From an uncultured Alphaproteobacteria bacterium (GTDB lineage Bacteria > Pseudomonadota > Alphaproteobacteria > Rs-D84 > CACZYB01), in the NCBI GenBank assembly GCA_934246625.1, contig CAKQHZ010000004.1, positions 1-32,000 on the forward strand: a DNA stretch of 32,000 nt, in the 5' to 3' direction. Within the stretch, counting starts at the first letter, position 1. Each line of letters begins with the position of its first letter. The notes beneath the pieces are model-generated. The model worked only from the letters and a program-made list of their open reading frames with translations, was not told the origin of the DNA and made no database searches. This document shows positions 711-19,801 of this stretch, in pieces. The translations under genes were made by a program, and so were the position numbers.

Positions 711-1133
711 ATGAAATTATTTACTATTGGATATAGTGGAAAAAGTGAAGCAAAGTTTTTTGAAATTTTGCGGGAGGCTGGCGTATCAAAAATTATTGAT
801 GTGCGAAGATTTAGGACTTCTAAATTTGTGTCATTTGCATCTGAGATAAACCTACAAAAAAAATGCAAATACAAATATGTTGTTATGGAACAGGTCGCTC
901 CATTATCCAAACTTTTAAGTGATTGGCAAAAGGGTGAAATTGCGTGGAGCTATTACGAACGAGAATACAAAAAATACTTGTCTGAAATTCATGCTGAAAA
1001 AATTTTTTCAAAAGATATTTTGGATAATGCTTGCCTGCTTTGTATGGAGGGAGAAGCCTTCCAATGCCACCGTCGACTTTTGGCTGAATATTTGAGTGAA
1101 AAGTTTAATGATGTTGAAGTTGTGCATTTGTAA
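711..1133 (+). CDS. DUF488 family protein
   Basis: 140 aa. The N-terminus MKLFTIGYSGKS..FFEILREAGVSKIIDVR and the C-terminus LLCMEGEAFQCHRRLLAEYL match the conserved ends of DUF488 proteins. Confidence 0.6.
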   Translation: MKLFTIGYSGKSEAKFFEILREAGVSKIIDVRRFRTSKFVSFASEINLQKKCKYKYVVMEQVAPLSKLLSDWQKGEIAWSYYEREYKKYLSEIHAEKIFSKDILDNACLLCMEGEAFQCHRRLLAEYLSEKFNDVEVVHL

Positions 1134-1169
1134 TAATTCAATTATCTTTGTTATTGTGTGGGTTAACCT

Positions 1170-1196
1170 CCACAAGAGGAGTATATCCTCTTGTGG
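1170..1196. terminator. perfect 11-bp stem hairpin between convergent genes (possible bidirectional terminator, no clear U-tract)
   Basis: ccacaagagga (1170-1180), loop gtata (1181-1185), tcctcttgtgg (1186-1196). It sits between the DUF488 stop (1133) and the HTH gene stop (1226). Confidence 0.4.
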
Positions 1197-1225
1197 TAAT
1201 TCTACATAATTGGTTCTTTCTATTC

Positions 1226-1459
1226 CTACCCCTCTAAATACTTAGAGAATTGCTCCCAGGAAAGACCAGTCGCCCTCATAACCTTACAAATACTTTCCGT
1301 AGATGGCCATCTGAACTTGCCACTAGGATAAAACCTCTTACTCTTATTAAATGCTGTAGCATCAAGACCTGCCTTTTTAGCCAAAGCAGAAACAGAAATA
1401 CCGTTTATGTATGCAATCTTGTCAATAGTCCCCCAGATTTTAGAATGTTCTGTATCCAT
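1226..1459 (-). CDS. small helix-turn-helix (XRE/cI-like) transcriptional regulator
   Basis: Part of ORF 1226..1507. I placed the start at ATG 1459 because AAAGGAG lies just upstream on the minus strand. GISVSALAKKAGLDATAFNKSKR...WPSTESICKVM resembles the N-terminal DNA-binding domain of phage-repressor-like regulators common in Alphaproteobacteria. Confidence 0.65.
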   Translation of the reverse strand: MDTEHSKIWGTIDKIAYINGISVSALAKKAGLDATAFNKSKRFYPSGKFRWPSTESICKVMRATGLSWEQFSKYLEG

Positions 1460-1519
1460 AACACAACTCCTTTGATTATAACTCTCTTTTACGACAATCT
1501 CATACAATGCATATTACAA

Positions 1520-1548
1520 CTTATACTAGAAAATAAGAAGAAATGCAA
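1520..1548 (-). promoter_or_regulatory. candidate sigma70-type promoter for the HTH gene
   Basis: On the minus strand: TTGCAT (1548-1543), 17-nt spacer, TATAAG (1525-1520). Confidence 0.3.
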
Positions 1549-1578
1549 GAGGAAGATATTCTTATCGTGGGGGATAAG

Positions 1579-1605
1579 AAAAAAGAGCAGGGCAAACCAT
1601 ACTCT
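1579..1605 (-). terminator. intrinsic terminator of the predicted tracrRNA
   Basis: Minus strand reads AGAGTATGG-TTTG-CCCTGCTCT, a 9-bp stem with one mismatch and one G-U pair, then TTTTT (plus-strand A-run 1579-1583). On the plus strand the same hairpin has no following T-tract. Confidence 0.55.
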
Positions 1606-1680
1606 TTAAAATTGTGAATTTTTCATCTTATTGACTACTAGACATTTAATTCCAATACAAATAGTTATCAATAAATTCAC
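1579..1680 (-). ncRNA. tracrRNA: predicted tracrRNA (anti-repeat 1635-1657, ends approximate)
   Basis: Plus-strand 1635-1657 (ctactagacatttaattccaata) is identical to 23 nt of the reverse complement of the CRISPR repeat. ttg (1631-1633) extends the match across a 1-nt bulge (A1634). On the minus strand it has a consensus-like promoter upstream and a hairpin plus U-tract terminator downstream. Confidence 0.7.
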
Positions 1681-1686
1681 ATTTTT

Positions 1687-1716
1687 ATTATAATATTAAA
1701 TACTTGCATTTGTCAA
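1687..1716 (-). promoter_or_regulatory. candidate tracrRNA promoter
   Basis: On the minus strand: TTGACA (1716-1711), 18-nt spacer, TATAAT (1692-1687). The predicted start is near 1680. Confidence 0.5.
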
Positions 1717-1733
1717 TATTTTTATTTTATAAT
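1704..1733 (+). promoter_or_regulatory. candidate cas9 operon promoter
   Basis: TTGCAT (1704-1709), 18-nt spacer, TATAAT (1728-1733). AAGGA lies upstream of ATG 1763. Its -35 region lies back-to-back with the -35 of the tracrRNA promoter. Confidence 0.45.
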
Positions 1734-1762
1734 ATCCTTATATTAAATAAAGGAATTTTATT

Positions 1763-4700
1763 ATGGCTTATAAATTTGCATTTGATTTAGGATCTAGTTC
1801 TTGTGGTTGGGCTGTTGTTGAAGTTGATGAAAATCAAAATGTTTTATGTTTGAAAGATATGGGAGTACGTATTTTTCCAGATGGTAGAAATGATAAGAAT
1901 CCAGAATCTCTTTGTGTAAATAGAAGGAATAAAAGAGAATTAAGGCGAAGGTTTGATAGAATCCTTTTGAGAAAGAAAAGATTATTAGGTATTTTGAAAT
2001 CTAATAATATGGCAGATTTTCATTTAGATAATAATAAAAATTCTGAAGATTTTATACAAAATAATCCATATTATTTGAGAGCAAAGGCAGTTTATGAAAA
2101 AGTTTCTTTGAGTGAGTTAGGACATATATTTTTTAATCTTTGCCAAAGAAGAGGTTTTAAAAGTAATAGAAAAGAAATTAAACAAGATAAAAAAAATGAT
2201 GAAGGTTTACAAAGTGCAATAAAACGATTAAGTTTACTTTTATCTAATAAAACTTTAGGGGAATATCTTTATGAAACATATTGTGATTATTGCAATAATA
2301 AAGATGAAAAAAATAATGTAGATAAAATAAGATTTTCAGAACAATTTGATAAAAATAAAAAACTTAAAAATGATGCTTTGTATCCAACAAGGGAAATGTA
2401 TGAATCTGAATTTGAAAAAATTTGGGATGTTCAATCTAGGTTTTATCCATCTGTTTTAAAAGATGATTTAAAAAAAGAACTCTATGATGCAATTTTTTAT
2501 CAGAGAAATTTGCATCCTCAAGAAAGAGGAAAATGTATTTTTGAATCAGGTGAGTATAGAATATATAAGGCACATCCTTTATTTCAAAAATTTAGAATTC
2601 TACAGACAATAAATCAATTAAAAGTTATTGATAATAGTGGTAAATTAAAGCCTTTTGAACAAAGGGATAAATTAAAAAATATTTTATTTAATTCTTTTGA
2701 TAAAGCAAATAAAAAAGGTGAAATAACTTGGGGAAATTTGAAAAAATTATTAGGGGTTGATAAGTTATTTCATTTTAATCTTGAAACAGAAAAACGAATG
2801 TCTTTGTCTGTGGATACTACAGCTTTTATTCTTTCAAAAGAGGATTATTTTGGTGATAAATGGTTTGAATTGTCTGATATAGAAAAATCAGAAATTGTTG
2901 ATGATTTATTAAGTGATAAGAGTGATGAAGATGTTAAATTAAGTTTATTAAAATATAATTTATCAAATTTGCAAATTGATAATATTTTAACAGCACCGTT
3001 AGAAGATAATGTTGGTTCACTTTCTTTGAAGGCAATTTTGAAACTTATCCCTTTGTTAGAAAAAGGGTATTTATATAATGATGCTTGTAGAGAAATATAC
3101 AAAACACATTCTGATTTATATAGTGAAGAAAAAATGGAAAAGTTGCCTTATTATGGTCAAATATTAAGAACATCATGTATATCTGTTAAAGAAGGTGATG
3201 GTAGTTTGGATGAACAAAAATATGGTAGAATTACTAATGTAACTGTTCATATTGCACTTAATCAACTTAGACAAGTTGTAAATAGTTTAATTGAAAAATA
3301 TGGTAAACCAAATTTTATATCTATTGAAGTAGCAAGAGATTTGAAGGCAGGAACAAAACAACGTAAAGAAATTATGCAAAGACAAAAAGAGAATGAAAAG
3401 TATAATAATACTATAGTTGATTTCTTAAATGAACATAATTTTAAGGTGAATAGAGAAAATATTCAAAAATATAAATTATGGAAAGAGTTATCTGATAATC
3501 CCACTGATCGATGTTGTGTATATACAGGTAAGCCAATAAGTGAAACGGATTTATTTTCTCCTAATGTTCAAATAGAACATATACTTCCATTTTCAAGGAC
3601 TTTGGATGATAGTATGGCAAATAAAACTTTGTCTTATAGTGATGCAAATTATTATAAAAAGGAGAGAACTCCTTTTGAAGCATTTGCAAATAGTAAAGAT
3701 AGTCGATTTGTTTGGCATGATATTGTTGATAGAGCTCTTAAACTTCCTGCTAATAAGTCTTGGCGTTTTGAAGAAAATGCAATGGATAAATTTAAAAAAG
3801 ATAATGATTTTATTGCAAGAGTTTTGAATGATACAAGGTATATGTCTAGGATTGCTGTATTATATTTAAAGTGTTTATTTGATAAAGAACATAAGTCAAA
3901 TGTTTTTGGGCTTCCTGGTTCAATGACAAGTTTGTTACGTGAGGCATGGGGATTGAATGTACTTAAAGATAAAAGAAATGACGATACTTATAGAGCTTTG
4001 CATATCCATCATGCAATTGATGCTTTTGTTATTGCCTGTATGACAAGAAGTCAAATGCAAATTTTGGCAAAAAATGCTGATAAAATAGAAAAAGAGGCAA
4101 TAGATGCTTCTGGACAAATAAATTATTCAGATCAAAAGGAATGGAGAAAAAAACTTGTTGGTGATAAAAAAGATCCTATTGATAATTTTGATAGAGATGG
4201 ATTTTTTAGAAAATGTGAAAATATAGTTGTTTCCTATAAATCAAAACTGAAGAATCCTAAAAATACAAAGAATACTGTTGGTGCTTTGCATGAAGATACA
4301 GCTTATAATTTATTGGATTTTAAAAGAAATAAAAAAGGAGAATTAACTTCACAAACAAAAGCAATTTTTGAGTGTAGAGTTCTTATTTCTGATTTAAAGG
4401 AAAAAGATTTAGTTAATGTTCATGATAGTTATGCTGAAAAGTTAGTTAGAAATAATGATCAAAATCTTTTAGGTGAATTTTTAGAGTATTGTAAAGCTTG
4501 TGGTAAGAAAAAAATAAGAGTTAAAAAAGAAGTTGATTTTTCTAATTATGTGCCAGTGTTTAGATCAAAGCAAGAAAGAGACGCTTATCATCTTGCTTAT
4601 GAAAATTGGTATAAAGAAACTGGCAAGGGTAATAAGGTAAAAGAAAAAGCTCTTATGAAAGTTCTTTGTGATGAAGCCAAAAAAGCATATAAATGGTATG

Positions 4701-5122
4701 TAAGTGGTAATAATTTTTGTGCTGATATATATCAAATAGATCCTAATGATAAAGTTTTTGTAAAAGAACGTGGACAATATAATGTTGAAATAATTTCGAA
4801 TTATATGGCTATGTTGAATAAAGGAGAACCTTTGTGGAAAAAGAAATATCCAAAAGCTCGTCGTATAATAAGATTGAAACAAGATGATCAAATTATGTTG
4901 GAATTTGATGGATGTAAATATATTTATAGGGTTAGAGGTTTTGGTTTAAATAAACAATTTTACTTAAGACATAATAAAGATACAAAAGATACGAATCGTA
5001 GTCTTAGCCCTTATATTAATGATCTCATAAAAATGAAGATAAGAAAAATTTATGTTTCACCAATAGGTGATGTTATTGATAATGGTTTTGATACAAAATG
5101 GAGTAATAAAGATGATAAATAA
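1763..5122 (+). CDS. cas9: CRISPR-associated endonuclease Cas9, type II-C-like (1119 aa)
   Basis: RuvC-I FDLGSSSCGWAV (Asp8). Arg-rich bridge helix RRNKRELRRRFDRILLRKKRL. RuvC-II ISIEVARDL (Glu522). HNH QIEHILPFSRTLDDSMANKTL (His606). RuvC-III HIHHAIDAF (His750, Asp753). It is followed directly by cas1, cas2 and the array. Confidence 0.97.
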   Translation: MAYKFAFDLGSSSCGWAVVEVDENQNVLCLKDMGVRIFPDGRNDKNPESLCVNRRNKRELRRRFDRILLRKKRLLGILKSNNMADFHLDNNKNSEDFIQNNPYYLRAKAVYEKVSLSELGHIFFNLCQRRGFKSNRKEIKQDKKNDEGLQSAIKRLSLLLSNKTLGEYLYETYCDYCNNKDEKNNVDKIRFSEQFDKNKKLKNDALYPTREMYESEFEKIWDVQSRFYPSVLKDDLKKELYDAIFYQRNLHPQERGKCIFESGEYRIYKAHPLFQKFRILQTINQLKVIDNSGKLKPFEQRDKLKNILFNSFDKANKKGEITWGNLKKLLGVDKLFHFNLETEKRMSLSVDTTAFILSKEDYFGDKWFELSDIEKSEIVDDLLSDKSDEDVKLSLLKYNLSNLQIDNILTAPLEDNVGSLSLKAILKLIPLLEKGYLYNDACREIYKTHSDLYSEEKMEKLPYYGQILRTSCISVKEGDGSLDEQKYGRITNVTVHIALNQLRQVVNSLIEKYGKPNFISIEVARDLKAGTKQRKEIMQRQKENEKYNNTIVDFLNEHNFKVNRENIQKYKLWKELSDNPTDRCCVYTGKPISETDLFSPNVQIEHILPFSRTLDDSMANKTLSYSDANYYKKERTPFEAFANSKDSRFVWHDIVDRALKLPANKSWRFEENAMDKFKKDNDFIARVLNDTRYMSRIAVLYLKCLFDKEHKSNVFGLPGSMTSLLREAWGLNVLKDKRNDDTYRALHIHHAIDAFVIACMTRSQMQILAKNADKIEKEAIDASGQINYSDQKEWRKKLVGDKKDPIDNFDRDGFFRKCENIVVSYKSKLKNPKNTKNTVGALHEDTAYNLLDFKRNKKGELTSQTKAIFECRVLISDLKEKDLVNVHDSYAEKLVRNNDQNLLGEFLEYCKACGKKKIRVKKEVDFSNYVPVFRSKQERDAYHLAYENWYKETGKGNKVKEKALMKVLCDEAKKAYKWYVSGNNFCADIYQIDPNDKVFVKERGQYNVEIISNYMAMLNKGEPLWKKKYPKARRIIRLKQDDQIMLEFDGCKYIYRVRGFGLNKQFYLRHNKDTKDTNRSLSPYINDLIKMKIRKIYVSPIGDVIDNGFDTKWSNKDDK

Positions 5123-6011
5123 TATAATTGAAATTTCGACTGATAATAAAGAGTTATCGTCATATAAAGGATTTTTGAGAATAAAGGAAAGAGGAGAGGT
5201 TGTTAAAGACCTCTCTTTTGATTCTATACATGCTCTTATTATAACAGGTAAAGCAGTTGTTTATACAAATAATTTATTACAAAGTTTGTGTGAATATGGA
5301 ATTCCTCTTATTATTTGTGGAAATAATTTTTTACCTTGTGGTATTTTGACATCTTTTGTTGGTCAACGACAACAAACAAAAATTCAACAAATACAAATTG
5401 ATACTTCTAAACCTTTGCAGAAACAATTATGGGCAGAGATTGTTAAAGAAAAAATTAGAAATCAATCAAGAGTATTAGAATTATTGGGGAAAGAAAATAA
5501 ATTAAGAAATCTTCATAATGAAGTTTTATCTGGAGATACTTCTAATGTAGAAGCTAATGCTGCAAGATTATATTTCCCGGCTTTATTTGGTTGCAATTTT
5601 ATTAGAAATACTGATAAAAATGGGATAAATAGTTTTCTTAATTATGGATATGCTATAATTAGAGCTTGTGTTGCAAGATTTGTTATTTCTGCTGGATTAA
5701 ATCCTTCATTTGGTTTGCAACATCATAATAAATTAAATCCATTTTGCTTAGTTGATGATTTAATGGAAATTTACAGACCATTAGTTGATGTAAAAGTATA
5801 TCAAATATTTGATGGATTAGACGATGAAAAAAAAGAACTTTTACCAGAGTATAAACAAATTTTAGCCAATGTTTTGCATATAGAAATTTATAATGGAGAT
5901 GGATTTTCTGAGCTTGTTAATATTATTCAAAATGATATATGGGCTTTTGTATCTTCTTTAAAGGGAAAGAAAGTAAAGTTTGAGTTTAACAAATATATTA
6001 TAAGGAAATAA
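5112..6011 (+). CDS. cas1: CRISPR-associated endonuclease Cas1 (type II)
   Basis: ORF 5067..6011. I placed the start at ATG 5112 (MINNIIEIS...), with GGAG at 5099-5102, overlapping the cas9 stop by 11 nt. LIICGNNFLPCG, QLWAEIVKEKIRNQ and NSFLNYGYAIIRA align by eye with type II Cas1 such as the Neisseria protein. Confidence 0.93.
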   Translation: MINNIIEISTDNKELSSYKGFLRIKERGEVVKDLSFDSIHALIITGKAVVYTNNLLQSLCEYGIPLIICGNNFLPCGILTSFVGQRQQTKIQQIQIDTSKPLQKQLWAEIVKEKIRNQSRVLELLGKENKLRNLHNEVLSGDTSNVEANAARLYFPALFGCNFIRNTDKNGINSFLNYGYAIIRACVARFVISAGLNPSFGLQHHNKLNPFCLVDDLMEIYRPLVDVKVYQIFDGLDDEKKELLPEYKQILANVLHIEIYNGDGFSELVNIIQNDIWAFVSSLKGKKVKFEFNKYIIRK

Positions 6012-6013
6012 TT

Positions 6014-6364
6014 ATGGATGATAATCAATATTTTAAAACAAAAGGATTAAAATATATGTGGATGATGATAATGTTTGATTTGCCTACTGATACAGCAGAA
6101 GAAAGGCATAAAGCAACAAAATTTAGAAATTTTTTGTTGGATAGTGGATTTGAAATGGCTCAATATTCTGTATATATGCGTTTTACAGGGACAAGAGAGA
6201 ATTCACAAAAATATATAAAAATGGTGAAAGATAATAATCCTTGTACAGGGGATGTATGTATTTTATTTTTTACGGATTATCAATTTGGAGAAATTCAGCA
6301 TTTAAGTAAGTTTGATAGACCTAAAAAATTAGCTGAGCAACCTGCTCAATATCAATTATTTTAA
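6014..6364 (+). CDS. cas2: CRISPR-associated endoribonuclease Cas2
   Basis: 116 aa, with AAGGA 7 nt upstream of the ATG. MIMFDLPTDTAEERHKATKFRNFLLDSGFEMAQYSVYMRF is the typical Cas2 beta-alpha-beta core. Its position directly after cas1 fits. Confidence 0.9.
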   Translation: MDDNQYFKTKGLKYMWMMIMFDLPTDTAEERHKATKFRNFLLDSGFEMAQYSVYMRFTGTRENSQKYIKMVKDNNPCTGDVCILFFTDYQFGEIQHLSKFDRPKKLAEQPAQYQLF

Positions 6365-6455
6365 CGAATCGGTTTAATTTTACGATTAAAAAAATTGTAA
6401 ATTTATACATAAATCGAATCGTAAATATAGATTTTTATATTTTTGATTAGTATAT

Positions 6456-6483
6456 AAAAAGCCCATTTTTTCTGGGCTTTTTT
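6456..6483. terminator. bidirectional intrinsic terminator between cas2 and the CRISPR array
   Basis: aaaaa-gccca (6461-6465), loop ttttttc, tgggc (6473-6477), tttttt. The stem is extendable by the flanking A/T runs, so it has a U-tract in either direction. Confidence 0.6.
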
Positions 6484-6490
6484 GTGGTCT

Positions 6491-6790
6491 ATTATAACAT
6501 ATTGGAATTAAATGTCTAGTAGCAACTACCTTGCAATTTAAAACCATCAACCCCTTATTATAACATATTGGAATTAAATGTCTAGTAGCAACTTATAAGG
6601 GGTAATAAATATGCAAACAGATATTATAACATATTGGAATTAAATGTCTAGTAGCAACTTTAACATACACGATGAATTTTTCATCTGGATTATAACATAT
6701 TGGAATTAAATGTCTAGTAGCAACAAAGTATAAAGGCATTTATGGCACAACTTAATTATAACATATTGGAATTAAATGTCTAGTAGCAAC
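6491..6790 (-). CRISPR. CRISPR array of 5 identical 36-nt repeats and 4 spacers of 30 nt, predicted to be transcribed on the minus strand
   Basis: Repeat attataacatattggaattaaatgtctagtagcaac occurs at 6491-6526, 6557-6592, 6623-6658, 6689-6724 and 6755-6790. Spacers are 6527-6556, 6593-6622, 6659-6688 and 6725-6754. The strand is inferred from the GTTG...TGTTATAAT orientation and the tracrRNA strand. Confidence 0.97.
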
Positions 6791-6791
6791 T

Positions 6792-6805
6792 ATTATTTGG
6801 AATTA
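6792..6805. repeat. truncated CRISPR repeat remnant abutting the last repeat
   Basis: attatttggaatta equals repeat nt 1-5 (attat) plus nt 12-20 (ttggaatta) with nt 6-11 missing. It begins 1 nt after repeat 5 with no spacer between them. Confidence 0.4.
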
Positions 6806-6808
6806 CCT

Positions 6809-7618
6809 TTATTTCTTTTCACTAAATTTTTTCTTTAGGAAGAAGCCGAAGCTGATAGCAAGAAGTATGCTTACCAAAATTATGTAGTAAAAGATATTTT
6901 GTTTGTTTGCAAATGGAAGTCGGACATTCATTCCATAAAGACCTGAAATACTTGTGATAATAAGAGCTGAAACGTTGACTATTGTCAATGATTCCATTCG
7001 TTTGTTTGTTATATTATTTGTGATAATTTCAAGAGTACTTTTTAAATTTGATACATTTTTTGAATATGAAACTGCGGTTTCAAGGGCCTGATCATTTTCA
7101 ATTTTTGCATCGTTTATAAACTCATTATTTGGGGTTAGTGTTATGATTTTGTTTAAGACTTGCAAATTACCCTTTATTGCAATTATATATTCGTCCAAGT
7201 CATTTTGAAGTTCAAAAAGAGTCAACAAATCTTTGTTTTTAACATGGGTTTTTGAGGAGATTTTTATCTTTTTTATTTTTGTATTCATTGTTTTAAGGCT
7301 TTTAAAATATGCTTCTGTGATTTTATAAATTGCATCAACAATGATTAAAGTTGTGTTTTCTAATGATTTATCTAATTCAAAAGGAAAGTCCTTTTCATGC
7401 AAAAAGTAGGCAACATTTTTGGTTAAATAAATTCCCAATGTTTCGACATCGTTTTTTAACGGATACTTTAAAATGATTTCTGTATAGTCGTTTTTGCCCA
7501 AAAAACGTGCGATTTCGTTAGAGTCCTGGACATCTAAAAATAAATCCTCGTCAATGTTATATTTGGATATAATTTCCTTTGCATCTGAGTCTTTTATATT
7601 TATATCTTTTATAATCAT
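6809..7618 (-). CDS. short CorA-family divalent metal ion transporter-like protein
   Basis: 269 aa. The C-terminal SGLYGMNVRLPF (GMN signature) lies between two hydrophobic helices (VSALIITSISGLYG and IFYYIILVSILLAISFGFFL). AAGGA lies upstream of the ATG. It is shorter than typical CorA. Confidence 0.65.
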   Translation of the reverse strand: MIIKDINIKDSDAKEIISKYNIDEDLFLDVQDSNEIARFLGKNDYTEIILKYPLKNDVETLGIYLTKNVAYFLHEKDFPFELDKSLENTTLIIVDAIYKITEAYFKSLKTMNTKIKKIKISSKTHVKNKDLLTLFELQNDLDEYIIAIKGNLQVLNKIITLTPNNEFINDAKIENDQALETAVSYSKNVSNLKSTLEIITNNITNKRMESLTIVNVSALIITSISGLYGMNVRLPFANKQNIFYYIILVSILLAISFGFFLKKKFSEKK

Positions 7619-10098: not shown

Positions 10099-11805
10099 TT
10101 ATGCTTTTATTGATGATTGAAATAGTGTTCGTGCAGCTTCGATTGCTTCGGCTGTGATTTTATCGCCAGAAATAATTCTTGCAATTTCTTGAATCCTTTG
10201 TGCTTCGGAAAGTTGATTGACTGAGGTGATAGTTTTATTTTTTTCTTCGTCATAATATTTTTCAACTTTGAAGTGGTGATTACCGAATGATGCGACTTGT
10301 GGTGAGTGAGTTACGACCATAGTTTGTATGTGTTTGCTTAGGTTTGCAAGTCGTTCACCAACGGCACTTGCAGTTGCACCAGAAATTCCAGTGTCTACCT
10401 CATCAAAAATCATAGATGAGACAGAGTTTTCATCGGAAATAACAACTTTGATTGCAAGTGTGAAACGGGCAAGTTCACCACCAGATGCGATTTTGTGAAG
10501 ATAGTTTTTGTTTTCACCGAAGTTGGTTGAACCCATAAAACAAACTGTGTTTATTCCGTTTGATGTAAATTTATTTTCATCAGTTTCAGTTGTGATGACG
10601 GTTTCAAAAGTTGCCTTTTCAAGTTTGAGTGGTGGCAATTCTTTCATAACACGAGTGGATAATTCTTGACCTGTTTTTTTTCTTTCATCGGATAATTTTG
10701 TTGCAATTTCAAGGTATGATGATTTTGCAAGTTCTTCGTCCTTTTTCTTTTCATTTAAAACGTTGTCGGAATTGTTAATGTTATCGACAATTTCCTTTAG
10801 CTTTTGTGTGAATGCAGGAAGTTCATCAGGTGAAACTTTGTGTTTACGGGAAAGTTCACGAATTGAAAATAAACGTTCTTCCGTTTTTTCTAATGTTTCA
10901 GTGTCGGACATATCAGAAGAAAGAATTTGTGATAATCTTTCGTATGCGTCAGAAAGGTTTTGTGATGCTTCGTTAAGTGCTGTGATGGTGTCGTTTATGT
11001 TGTCATTTTTTGCATCATCAGGTATTCTTTCAAGAGCATAGGTTGCATCACCAATAAATTTTTCTGGTTCATCACCATATTTTGAAAGATAGTCGAAAGC
11101 GTCCTTTATTGATGTGATAATTTTTTCTGAATTTTGAAGAAGGTGGCGTTTTTGTGAAAGTTCTTCCTCTTCACCGACTTGAGGATTTAATGATGTTAGT
11201 TCAGAAAGATTGTGTTTAAGGTAGTCTTCATCTTCCTTTGCCTTTAAAAATTCTTCTTCGGTTTTGATGCGAATTTTTCGTTTTTCTTGCCAATTTTCGT
11301 ATGCGGTTTTTGTTTGCTCCTTTAACTTTTCAAGATTTCCGAATGTATCAAGAATATTTATATGTGTTGCAGGATTAAGTAGGCTTTGGTTATCAAATTG
11401 TCCGTGAATTTCAATTAAATCAGGGCTTATTGATTTTACCAATGAAAGGCTTACAGGCATATCGTTGATAAAGATTTTATTTTTACCATCTTTGTTCAAA
11501 GTGCGTCGTATGATAATTTCATTTTGATTTGAAATTTCGTTTGAATTTAGTATTTCATTTTCAATAAGTTTTTTGATGGCTGGGTGGGTGGCTTTTAAAT
11601 CAAATGTTGCACACACAGAAGTCGAATCACAATCCTTTTGTATGATTGATGTATCGCTTCGGGAACCAAGCACAAATGAAACGGCGTCAAGGAGGATTGA
11701 TTTACCTGCTCCTGTTTCACCAGTTAAAACGGTTAGTTTGTGTCCGAATGATAAAGTTAAATTTTCAATCAAGATGAAATTTTTAATTATCAAGTTTGTA
11801 AGCAT
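10099..11805 (-). CDS. recN: DNA repair protein RecN
   Basis: 568 aa. Walker A GETGAGKSILLDA at the N-terminus, a long coiled-coil middle, and the C-terminal ASGGELARFTLAIK / IFDEVDTGISG signature and Walker B. Confidence 0.9.
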   Translation of the reverse strand: MLTNLIIKNFILIENLTLSFGHKLTVLTGETGAGKSILLDAVSFVLGSRSDTSIIQKDCDSTSVCATFDLKATHPAIKKLIENEILNSNEISNQNEIIIRRTLNKDGKNKIFINDMPVSLSLVKSISPDLIEIHGQFDNQSLLNPATHINILDTFGNLEKLKEQTKTAYENWQEKRKIRIKTEEEFLKAKEDEDYLKHNLSELTSLNPQVGEEEELSQKRHLLQNSEKIITSIKDAFDYLSKYGDEPEKFIGDATYALERIPDDAKNDNINDTITALNEASQNLSDAYERLSQILSSDMSDTETLEKTEERLFSIRELSRKHKVSPDELPAFTQKLKEIVDNINNSDNVLNEKKKDEELAKSSYLEIATKLSDERKKTGQELSTRVMKELPPLKLEKATFETVITTETDENKFTSNGINTVCFMGSTNFGENKNYLHKIASGGELARFTLAIKVVISDENSVSSMIFDEVDTGISGATASAVGERLANLSKHIQTMVVTHSPQVASFGNHHFKVEKYYDEEKNKTITSVNQLSEAQRIQEIARIISGDKITAEAIEAARTLFQSSIKA

Positions 11806-19337: not shown

Positions 19338-19362
19338 AAATCCCCCATTTGGGGGATTTTTT
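19338..19362. terminator. bidirectional intrinsic terminator
   Basis: aaatccccc (19338-19346), loop attt, gggggattt (19351-19359), then a T-run. It lies between convergent genes 18914..19333 and dksA. Confidence 0.65.
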
Positions 19363-19801
19363 AATTGTTGTATAATTTTTCTTTTGTTTCGTGCTCTTCT
19401 TGGGCCTCTACTGACATTGTGGCAACTGGACGAGCCTCTAATCTTTTAAGTCCGATTGGTTCATCTGTAATTTCACAATATCCGAATGTGCCATCATCTA
19501 TTCTTTTTAATGCAGCATCAATTTTTGATATGAGTTTTCTTTCTCTATCTCTTGCACGAAGTTCAAGTTGTTTTAATGCTTCATCATTTGCACGATCAAC
19601 TTCATCACCAGCAGCACTGTATGTGTCAGAAGTTTCTTCTGTTAAAATTTTTAATGTTTCTTCACTGCCGTGTAAAAGTTCTTCTTTCCAATTAAGTAAT
19701 TTTTGACGGAAGTATTCTAGTTGCATAGGATTCATATATTCTTCATCTTCAGAAGGAACGTATCCTGGTGGTAATTCGATTTTCTTTTTGTCTTCTGTCA
19801 T
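19361..19801 (-). CDS. dksA: RNA polymerase-binding transcription factor DksA (lacks the C4 zinc-finger cysteines)
   Basis: 146 aa. Coiled-coil tip motif DEVDRANDEA, C-terminal GTFGYCEITDEPIGLKRLEARPVATMSVEAQ. The whole protein contains only one Cys. Confidence 0.88.
   Translation of the reverse strand: MTEDKKKIELPPGYVPSEDEEYMNPMQLEYFRQKLLNWKEELLHGSEETLKILTEETSDTYSAAGDEVDRANDEALKQLELRARDRERKLISKIDAALKRIDDGTFGYCEITDEPIGLKRLEARPVATMSVEAQEEHETKEKLYNN

Follow-up and report, generated by a model that had tools for sequence, protein, structure and literature searches.

A 32,000-nt stretch from an uncultured Alphaproteobacteria bacterium (GenBank assembly GCA_934246625.1, contig CAKQHZ010000004.1, positions 1–32,000; the window) very probably carries a functional, self-contained adaptive immunity locus of the type II-C clustered regularly interspaced short palindromic repeat (CRISPR)-Cas9 kind, in the style of Neisseria and Campylobacter. 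The locus (1579–6790) comprises a trans-activating CRISPR RNA (tracrRNA) gene, cas9, cas1, cas2 and then the array, all present and intact. A preliminary description had assigned these five elements to ~5.2 kb, and each lies at or near the position given there, the predicted tracrRNA end (1579) coinciding exactly with its start coordinate. Two details were corrected. The cas1 gene likely starts at ATG 5112, as called in four other contigs, rather than at the GTG at 5067; and tracrRNA and CRISPR RNAs (crRNAs) are assigned to the minus strand. The system is of a known type and ordinary apart from its Cas9 ortholog, which is new. Its components are as follows.

1579–1680, minus strand: predicted primary tracrRNA, ~102 nt
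Within it, minus strand: leader (1666–1680), anti-repeat (1630–1656), UCAAUAAG, the invariant UUCACAAU(U), terminator hairpin (1582–1607) and U-run
1687–1716, minus strand: predicted tracrRNA promoter, TTGACA-18-TATAAT, 12/12
1763–5122, plus strand: cas9, 1119 amino acids (aa), RuvC and HNH motifs intact
5112–6011, plus strand: cas1, 299 aa, type II/NMENI family, with an 11-nt overlap with the cas9 stop
6014–6364, plus strand: cas2, 116 aa
6365–6490, no strand assigned: leader-like region with putative bidirectional terminator, read from the sequence
6491–6790, minus strand (crRNA strand): CRISPR array, five 36-nt repeats and four 30-nt spacers

Typing with profile hidden Markov models (TIGR/NCBIfam, Pfam and PADLOC) calls the three proteins Cas9, Cas1_II and Cas2_II. 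On TIGR01865, Cas9 reaches 589 bits (model positions 1–1069 of 1070); it contains the Pfam domains RuvC_III, HNH_4 and Cas9_a, is also called by PADLOC, and has the split-RuvC/inserted-HNH signature with its catalytic residues. When aligned with Nme1Cas9, D8 (RuvC-I motif) corresponds to D16, H606 to H588 and N629 to N611; E522 lies inside SIEVARD, and H749, H750 and D753 inside IHHAIDA. The residue preceding the HNH histidine is a glutamate (E605), a clade trait rather than damage since it is shared by 102 of the 120 best homologs. The nuclease motifs, described earlier as intact, align with Nme1Cas9 at the catalytic residues of both domains, and no damage was found. Cas1 scores 253 bits on TIGR03639 (cas1_NMENI) and 307 bits on PADLOC Cas1_II, and Cas2 128 bits on PADLOC Cas2_II.

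Subtype II-C had been proposed from the lack of csn2 and cas4. Pfam scans of 28 window open reading frames (ORFs), supplemented by NCBIfam and PADLOC scans of eight of these, gave no Csn2 or Cas4 match; the search extends from position 1 rightward, DNA to the left lying outside the window. Among solved structures, the best relatives of Cas9 are Nme1Cas9 and Nme2Cas9 (E~1e-64), while the II-A proteins St1Cas9 and SaCas9 give E-values of 1e-33 to 1e-27. CjCas9, CdCas9 and AnaCas9 are also among the PDB matches, and SpCas9 and FnCas9 gave no match at 1e-3 in this search. The Cas9d (II-D) model gives 107 bits, far short of its cutoff of 375. Because the ranking is headed by Nme proteins, the Cas9d score is low and the operon consists of cas9-cas1-cas2 only, the locus is assigned on sequence grounds to subtype II-C, the grouping of Cas9 being a similarity ranking and not a tree; the NMENI-type Cas1 agrees.

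Apart from an identical protein, a search of a database of 5.8 billion proteins returned no sequence more than 61% identical to this Cas9, and its uncharacterised metagenomic orthologs (P0002–P0012) are 46–61% identical. The order tracr-cas9-cas1-cas2-array is kept in all seven ortholog loci with upstream DNA (loci are designated L), each with three cas genes only, and the outer neighbours are different in every case. Another contig (L029) begins just before cas9 and shows cas9-cas1-cas2 plus one repeat-like match. A 21-nt core shared by repeat and anti-repeat is identical in the 49–61% orthologs and diverged only in the most distant, L032. This core was found in five genome records, labelled as two Alphaproteobacteria, one proteobacterium, one bacterium and one Bacteroidales. 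Neither the repeat sequence nor the sample and assembly accessions occur in papers of the literature searched, and a Cas9 peptide pattern had no match in GTDB species representatives. A 56%-identical ortholog (L022/L012, CAZHAL010000022.1) lies in a metagenome-assembled genome (MAG) labelled ‘uncultured Bacteroidales bacterium’, a label that may reflect mis-binning or horizontal transfer.

The array consists of five exact copies of ATTATAACATATTGGAATTAAATGTCTAGTAGCAAC (at 6491, 6557, 6623, 6689 and 6755) separated by spacers of exactly 30 nt, as originally reported; a 28-nt part of the repeat, allowed ≤8 mismatches, gave one match in total across 20 shuffled versions of the window. On the minus strand the repeat reads GTTGCTACTAGACATTTAATTCCAATATGTTATAAT, with GTTG at its start and an extended -10 box at its end, and a promoter scan predicts TAGACA-16-TATAAT with an upstream TG on this strand (11/12) in all five copies. 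Since these putative promoters sit on the minus strand, the array would be read antisense to the cas genes. Among the orthologs, the 3′ end of the repeat, where the putative promoter lies, varies in sequence but retains a -10-like hexamer, together with TGn in TGTTATAAT, TGTTATGAT, TGCTATAAT and TGATACAAT; in the repeat of L013 the TG directly abuts TATAAT. The II-C pathway, leader end and array collapse are covered by two earlier studies (PMC5965381, PMC12477760). In Neisseria meningitidis and Campylobacter jejuni, crRNAs start inside each spacer and RNase III is not needed (PMC5965381), initiation in II-C systems being at the sixth nucleotide of each spacer (PMC12477760).

The cas2-array interval (126 bp) contains a hairpin (GCCCA-TTTTTTC-TGGGC; 6461–6477) between an A-run and a T-run, which by its sequence could terminate both the cas operon and a transcript leaving the first repeat. 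A degenerate terminal repeat is found at the cas-distal end of the L013 array; this and the analogy with N. meningitidis (PMC12477760) place the leader, by inference, on the cas2 side, transcriptionally downstream. The end of spacer 1 (ACCCCTT; 6550–6556) is the reverse complement of the start of spacer 2 (AAGGGGT; 6596–6602), a 7-nt complementarity that adjacent bases do not extend and that is probably coincidental.

The tracrRNA gene lies upstream of cas9, and its position and strand are shared by loci with a Cas9 of 46–61% identity. A 28-nt stretch from 1658 (minus strand) agrees with the repeat at all but 4 of its 28 positions and is the only extra repeat-like sequence in the window; no additional degenerate repeats or small CRISPR-Cas-associated RNA (scaRNA)-like elements were found there beyond the array and this anti-repeat. 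The predicted promoter is the sole 12/12 site within 1100–7000; its -35 box (TTGACA) is invariant in four orthologs aligned over the promoter and readable upstream of the tracrRNA in others. The fold of the predicted RNA has z=-5.0 relative to shuffles, and its duplex with the crRNA repeat is predicted at ~-49 kcal/mol (28+5 bp, one bulged U). The terminator varies in sequence among orthologs, with the hairpin retained, UUCACAAU is invariant in nine of nine orthologs and UUCACAAUU in the four first aligned. In a search of Rfam, this RNA matched no family above threshold.

Taken together, these predicted signals suggest the following scheme, in which we infer transcription starts, dispensability of RNase III, acquisition polarity, DNA cleavage and use of a protospacer adjacent motif (PAM) by analogy with characterised systems. 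The cas9-cas1-cas2 operon would be transcribed from the plus strand and stop at the bidirectional terminator. Each repeat would supply its own promoter on the opposite strand, transcription starting a few nt into the adjacent spacer and running through the next repeat, to give short crRNAs (~24 nt of guide plus repeat) for which RNase III would not be obligatory. The transcript from the first repeat would enter the terminator, shielding cas2 from antisense transcription. The tracrRNA (~100 nt), transcribed divergently from just upstream of cas9, would pair with the repeat part of the crRNA, and the pair would load into Cas9, whose RuvC and HNH sites would cut PAM-flanked invader DNA. Cas1-Cas2 would insert new spacers cas2-proximally, probably with help from Cas9 in PAM choice.

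Variation between strains is directly observed at the array. The same Cas9 (100% identity) is present on four other contigs from other samples. One of these (L001) is from the same species, with ~98.5–99.3% DNA identity (BLAST, spanning the divergent array) and PepA, RecN and Rel 98.8–100% identical to those of the window, and its array of six repeats and five spacers has no spacer in common with the window. A second (L002) carries the four spacers of the window plus one internal extra. The unrelated spacers of L001 and the single additional spacer of L002 indicate that spacers turn over, and are deleted by way of the repeats, in a living population.

Targets were sought for the spacers of these strains and of the orthologs. 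The ten spacers of the strains with this Cas9 gave no match at ≤6 mismatches to the window or to any fetched relative locus. One spacer of L001 (a4) matches a tail-like gene of one virus, represented by four contigs from four samples (L014, L015, L030, L031), over 23 contiguous nt (25/30); the flank would read TTTACCGACT. By rough estimate this match is not far from chance, so it was rejected as a PAM source. Among 23 ortholog spacers searched, one in L013 (CGGTCGTCCGCATTATCATTTTATTATTTT; 11336–11365), where Cas9 is 50% identical to that of the window, matches 21 Microviridae records in their replication-initiator gene (VP4), and almost all of these records come from mammal faeces or gut (27–28/30 in the five matches inspected), which points to gut microviruses as one target class of this clade. 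These sites lie in a conserved coding motif that constrains their flanks, and a PAM derived from them was likewise rejected.

Several observations weigh against a functional immunity locus. Its expression is predicted from in-silico signals, the array is short (four spacers), and RNase III and host factors are encoded outside the window. No convincing protospacer was found for the ten spacers in pattern scans of IMG/VR and JGI metagenomes or by BLAST against phages and plasmids. A conserved local nexus hairpin is absent from the tracrRNAs of nine orthologs, so details of the scaffold may differ from those in Nme.

The locus adjoins a series of housekeeping genes (recN, rel/spoT, proS, mlaD, ybeY, lnt, dksA, trx, sufS, pgm, ffh, hda and sua5). 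The preliminary list of flanking genes (hda, mlaD, lnt, rel/spoT and a DksA without zinc finger) holds: the DksA homolog (19361–19801, minus strand) has a single Cys (GYCEITDEPI...ATMSVEAQ) instead of four, and its Pfam zf-dskA_traR region is still matched. PepA has unnamed metagenomic relatives at 52–81% identity, followed by named Alphaproteobacteria at ~45%. Together with the labels of the five repeat-bearing records (two Alphaproteobacteria, one proteobacterium), this bears out the alphaproteobacterial origin guessed at earlier, at class level. The further guess of a host-associated organism gains indirect support from the ‘Hadza’ name of the contig bearing the 61%-identical ortholog, which we take to mean a human gut sample, and from the ortholog spacer matching faecal microviruses.

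In the two closest sister lineages (PepA ~80%), the order lnt-ybeY-mlaD-proS/rel-recN-pepA-x-corA is kept and no cas genes were found beyond corA. In a more distant relative (PepA 65%, RecN 72%; the ‘Hadza’ contig), an orthologous locus lies directly beside the pepA-recN-rel block, with Cas9 60.5%, Cas1 85% and Cas2 94% identical and an identical repeat. Since the locus is without counterpart in the closest sisters and present beside pepA in the distant relative, it is accessory, which corrects the preliminary reading: either an old locus has undergone repeated loss, or insertion recurs at this junction. Recent horizontal acquisition into a defence or variable island, as opposed to ancestral residence, is possible although we consider it doubtful. 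Such an event would fit the absence from the two closest sisters, which keep the gene order, and the left flank of the locus (helix-turn-helix (HTH), DUF488 and bPH genes), which has no counterpart in fetched relatives and a GC content of 33–40% as against 22–28%. It would also fit the candidate defence assignment of the DUF488 protein and the genes occupying the same region in a sister genome, both detailed below. Against this, the distant relative has its orthologous locus directly next to the pepA-recN-rel block found here, the cas genes match the genome in GC content, and old residence with repeated loss fits at least as well.

The DUF488 gene (711–1133, plus strand) matches the PADLOC candidate defence family PDC-M45C over its full length (E 7e-38) and is adjoined by a gene for a 77-aa Cro/C1-like HTH protein (1229–1459, minus strand). 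Three of the four other identical-Cas9 contigs begin at or beside the HTH gene (window 1347–1553), which suggests strain variation in this region. A role for the HTH protein as regulator or anti-CRISPR-associated (Aca)-like partner was considered and rejected: the gene is not conserved beside the orthologs, has no PADLOC or PHROG match and leaves no room for an acr ORF. In a sister genome without the CRISPR locus (L005, 15737–20315), the region beyond corA encodes RelB, an AAA_21/RloB pair and HNH_2, which suggests a defence or variable island at this junction in the lineage.

Arrays reduced to one or two repeats occur among the relatives. In L011, with the same Cas9 as L010, there is one repeat (5853) and no spacers; L023 has a single repeat (5440) and the same right-hand flank; and L021, from an Alphaproteobacteria MAG, has two orphan repeats (5356 and 6991) 1.6 kb apart. 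These are natural array-collapse states, and the alleles with one repeat are similar to R26, an experimental N. meningitidis allele that boosts adaptation (PMC12477760). Collapse in L011 and L023, the orphan repeats of L021, the presence of four spacers only and the lack of protospacers for ten spacers could also be read as signs that the locus of the window is a decaying or silenced remnant, its genes intact but adaptation and interference lost. We judge this very improbable: the repeats are all identical, the ORFs are intact, as are the catalytic residues, four contigs share a 100% identical Cas9 though their spacer sets differ, and the predicted promoters and terminators are conserved. The earlier view of a maintained rather than decaying system is thus strengthened by strains with identical Cas9 and different spacer sets, and by expression signals kept in the orthologs.

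That the locus serves mainly gene regulation (scaRNA-like or tracr-L-like) rather than immunity is scarcely credible: the tracrRNA leader is predicted to fold onto the 3′ end of the anti-repeat, loosely like the natural single guide tracr-L (PMC12477760), but a guide would not fit into the 6–8 nt that precede the repeat-mimicking segment on its 5′ side, further degenerate repeats and scaRNA-like elements are absent from the window, the spacers have no match at ≤6 mismatches in the window or in fetched relative loci, and spacer turnover and the microvirus match favour immunity.

The leader nevertheless provides a lead, as distinct from a finding. It was examined in the window (1612–1680, minus strand) and upstream of cas9 in L010, L012, L013, L025–L028 and L032. 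In all eight orthologs with a clear -10 hexamer, sequence 5–7 nt past this hexamer (GUGAAUUUAUUGAU in the window) could pair with GUCAAUAAG...UUCAC, which directly follows the anti-repeat on its 3′ side. The ninth, L032, has no clear -10 hexamer and, with its start set by spacing from the TTGACA box, shows the same complementarity. The potential helix has 14–15 bp and a 5–8 nt bulge. Minimum free energy folds include it in full in L025, L027, L028 and L012 and for the most part in L010 and L026; those of the window and L013 have the outer GUGAA/UUCAC stem only, and that of L032 has none of it. Predicted duplex energies are -7.4 to -13.1 kcal/mol vs ~-3 for shuffled leaders (p ≤ 0.019 in each of the nine). 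At position 6 of the outer stem the pair is U-A in some orthologs and A-U in others, and RNAalifold recovers the inner part of the helix. Column-wise covariation of the 5′ helix in seven related sequences was not significant (85.7% paired vs 82% in shuffles; 64 of 500 shuffles reach the covariation), and the argument for the helix is therefore drawn from the leader-shuffle energies.

These data raise the rather unlikely prospect that the primary tracrRNA is self-closed in this Cas9 clade, its first ~15 nt pairing with GUCAAUAAG...UUCAC. The segment concerned is the crRNA-proximal end of the anti-repeat and the site of the nexus stem-loop in other tracrRNAs. As leader and 5′ end of the crRNA repeat share the partner CAAU, the leader would be displaced, at least partly, on crRNA pairing. 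If the pairing occurs, the leader could be a mimic of the crRNA repeat or a nexus stem supplied in trans, and could gate crRNA pairing or Cas9 loading, which might connect it with the control of adaptation through crRNA/tracrRNA sensing described for NmeCas9; single-guide design for these orthologs would need to allow for it as well.

The locus, very probably functional in immunity, leaves current understanding unchanged. It offers a new, uncharacterised Cas9, ~61% identical to its nearest relative, with a divergent PAM-interacting region and a predictable dual RNA, that could be tested as an editing tool. Features of type II-C systems first described in pathogens (repeat promoters, strain-level spacer turnover, single-repeat collapse, repeated loss at one position and a microvirus match) are now seen or predicted in apparently gut-associated uncultured alphaproteobacteria.

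Among characterised systems, that of N. meningitidis is the closest. Nme1Cas9 and Nme2Cas9 also belong to an operon of cas9-cas1-cas2 only and are the best solved relatives (E 9e-65, residues 3–779 aligned); the 36-nt repeats with GTTG at the start and an extended -10 end, the putative per-repeat promoter, and a probable leader at the transcriptionally downstream end are likewise shared (PMC5965381, PMC12477760). In contrast to Nme, the C-terminal ~340 aa (WED and PAM-interacting regions) cannot be aligned by phmmer, so the Nme PAM is not transferable. The tracrRNA gene is upstream of and divergent from cas9, there is no conserved local stem-loop 1, with the tracrRNA 5′ leader predicted to pair with that region instead, the HNH motif reads E-H rather than D-H, and the host is an AT-rich uncultured alphaproteobacterium. 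The system of C. jejuni resembles the present one in its AT-rich host, three-gene operon and repeat-embedded promoters (PMC5965381), the last predicted in the window, but CjCas9 is a smaller protein and a much weaker match than Nme (PDB 5x2g, E 1.7e-30), and its repeat and tracrRNA differ in sequence.

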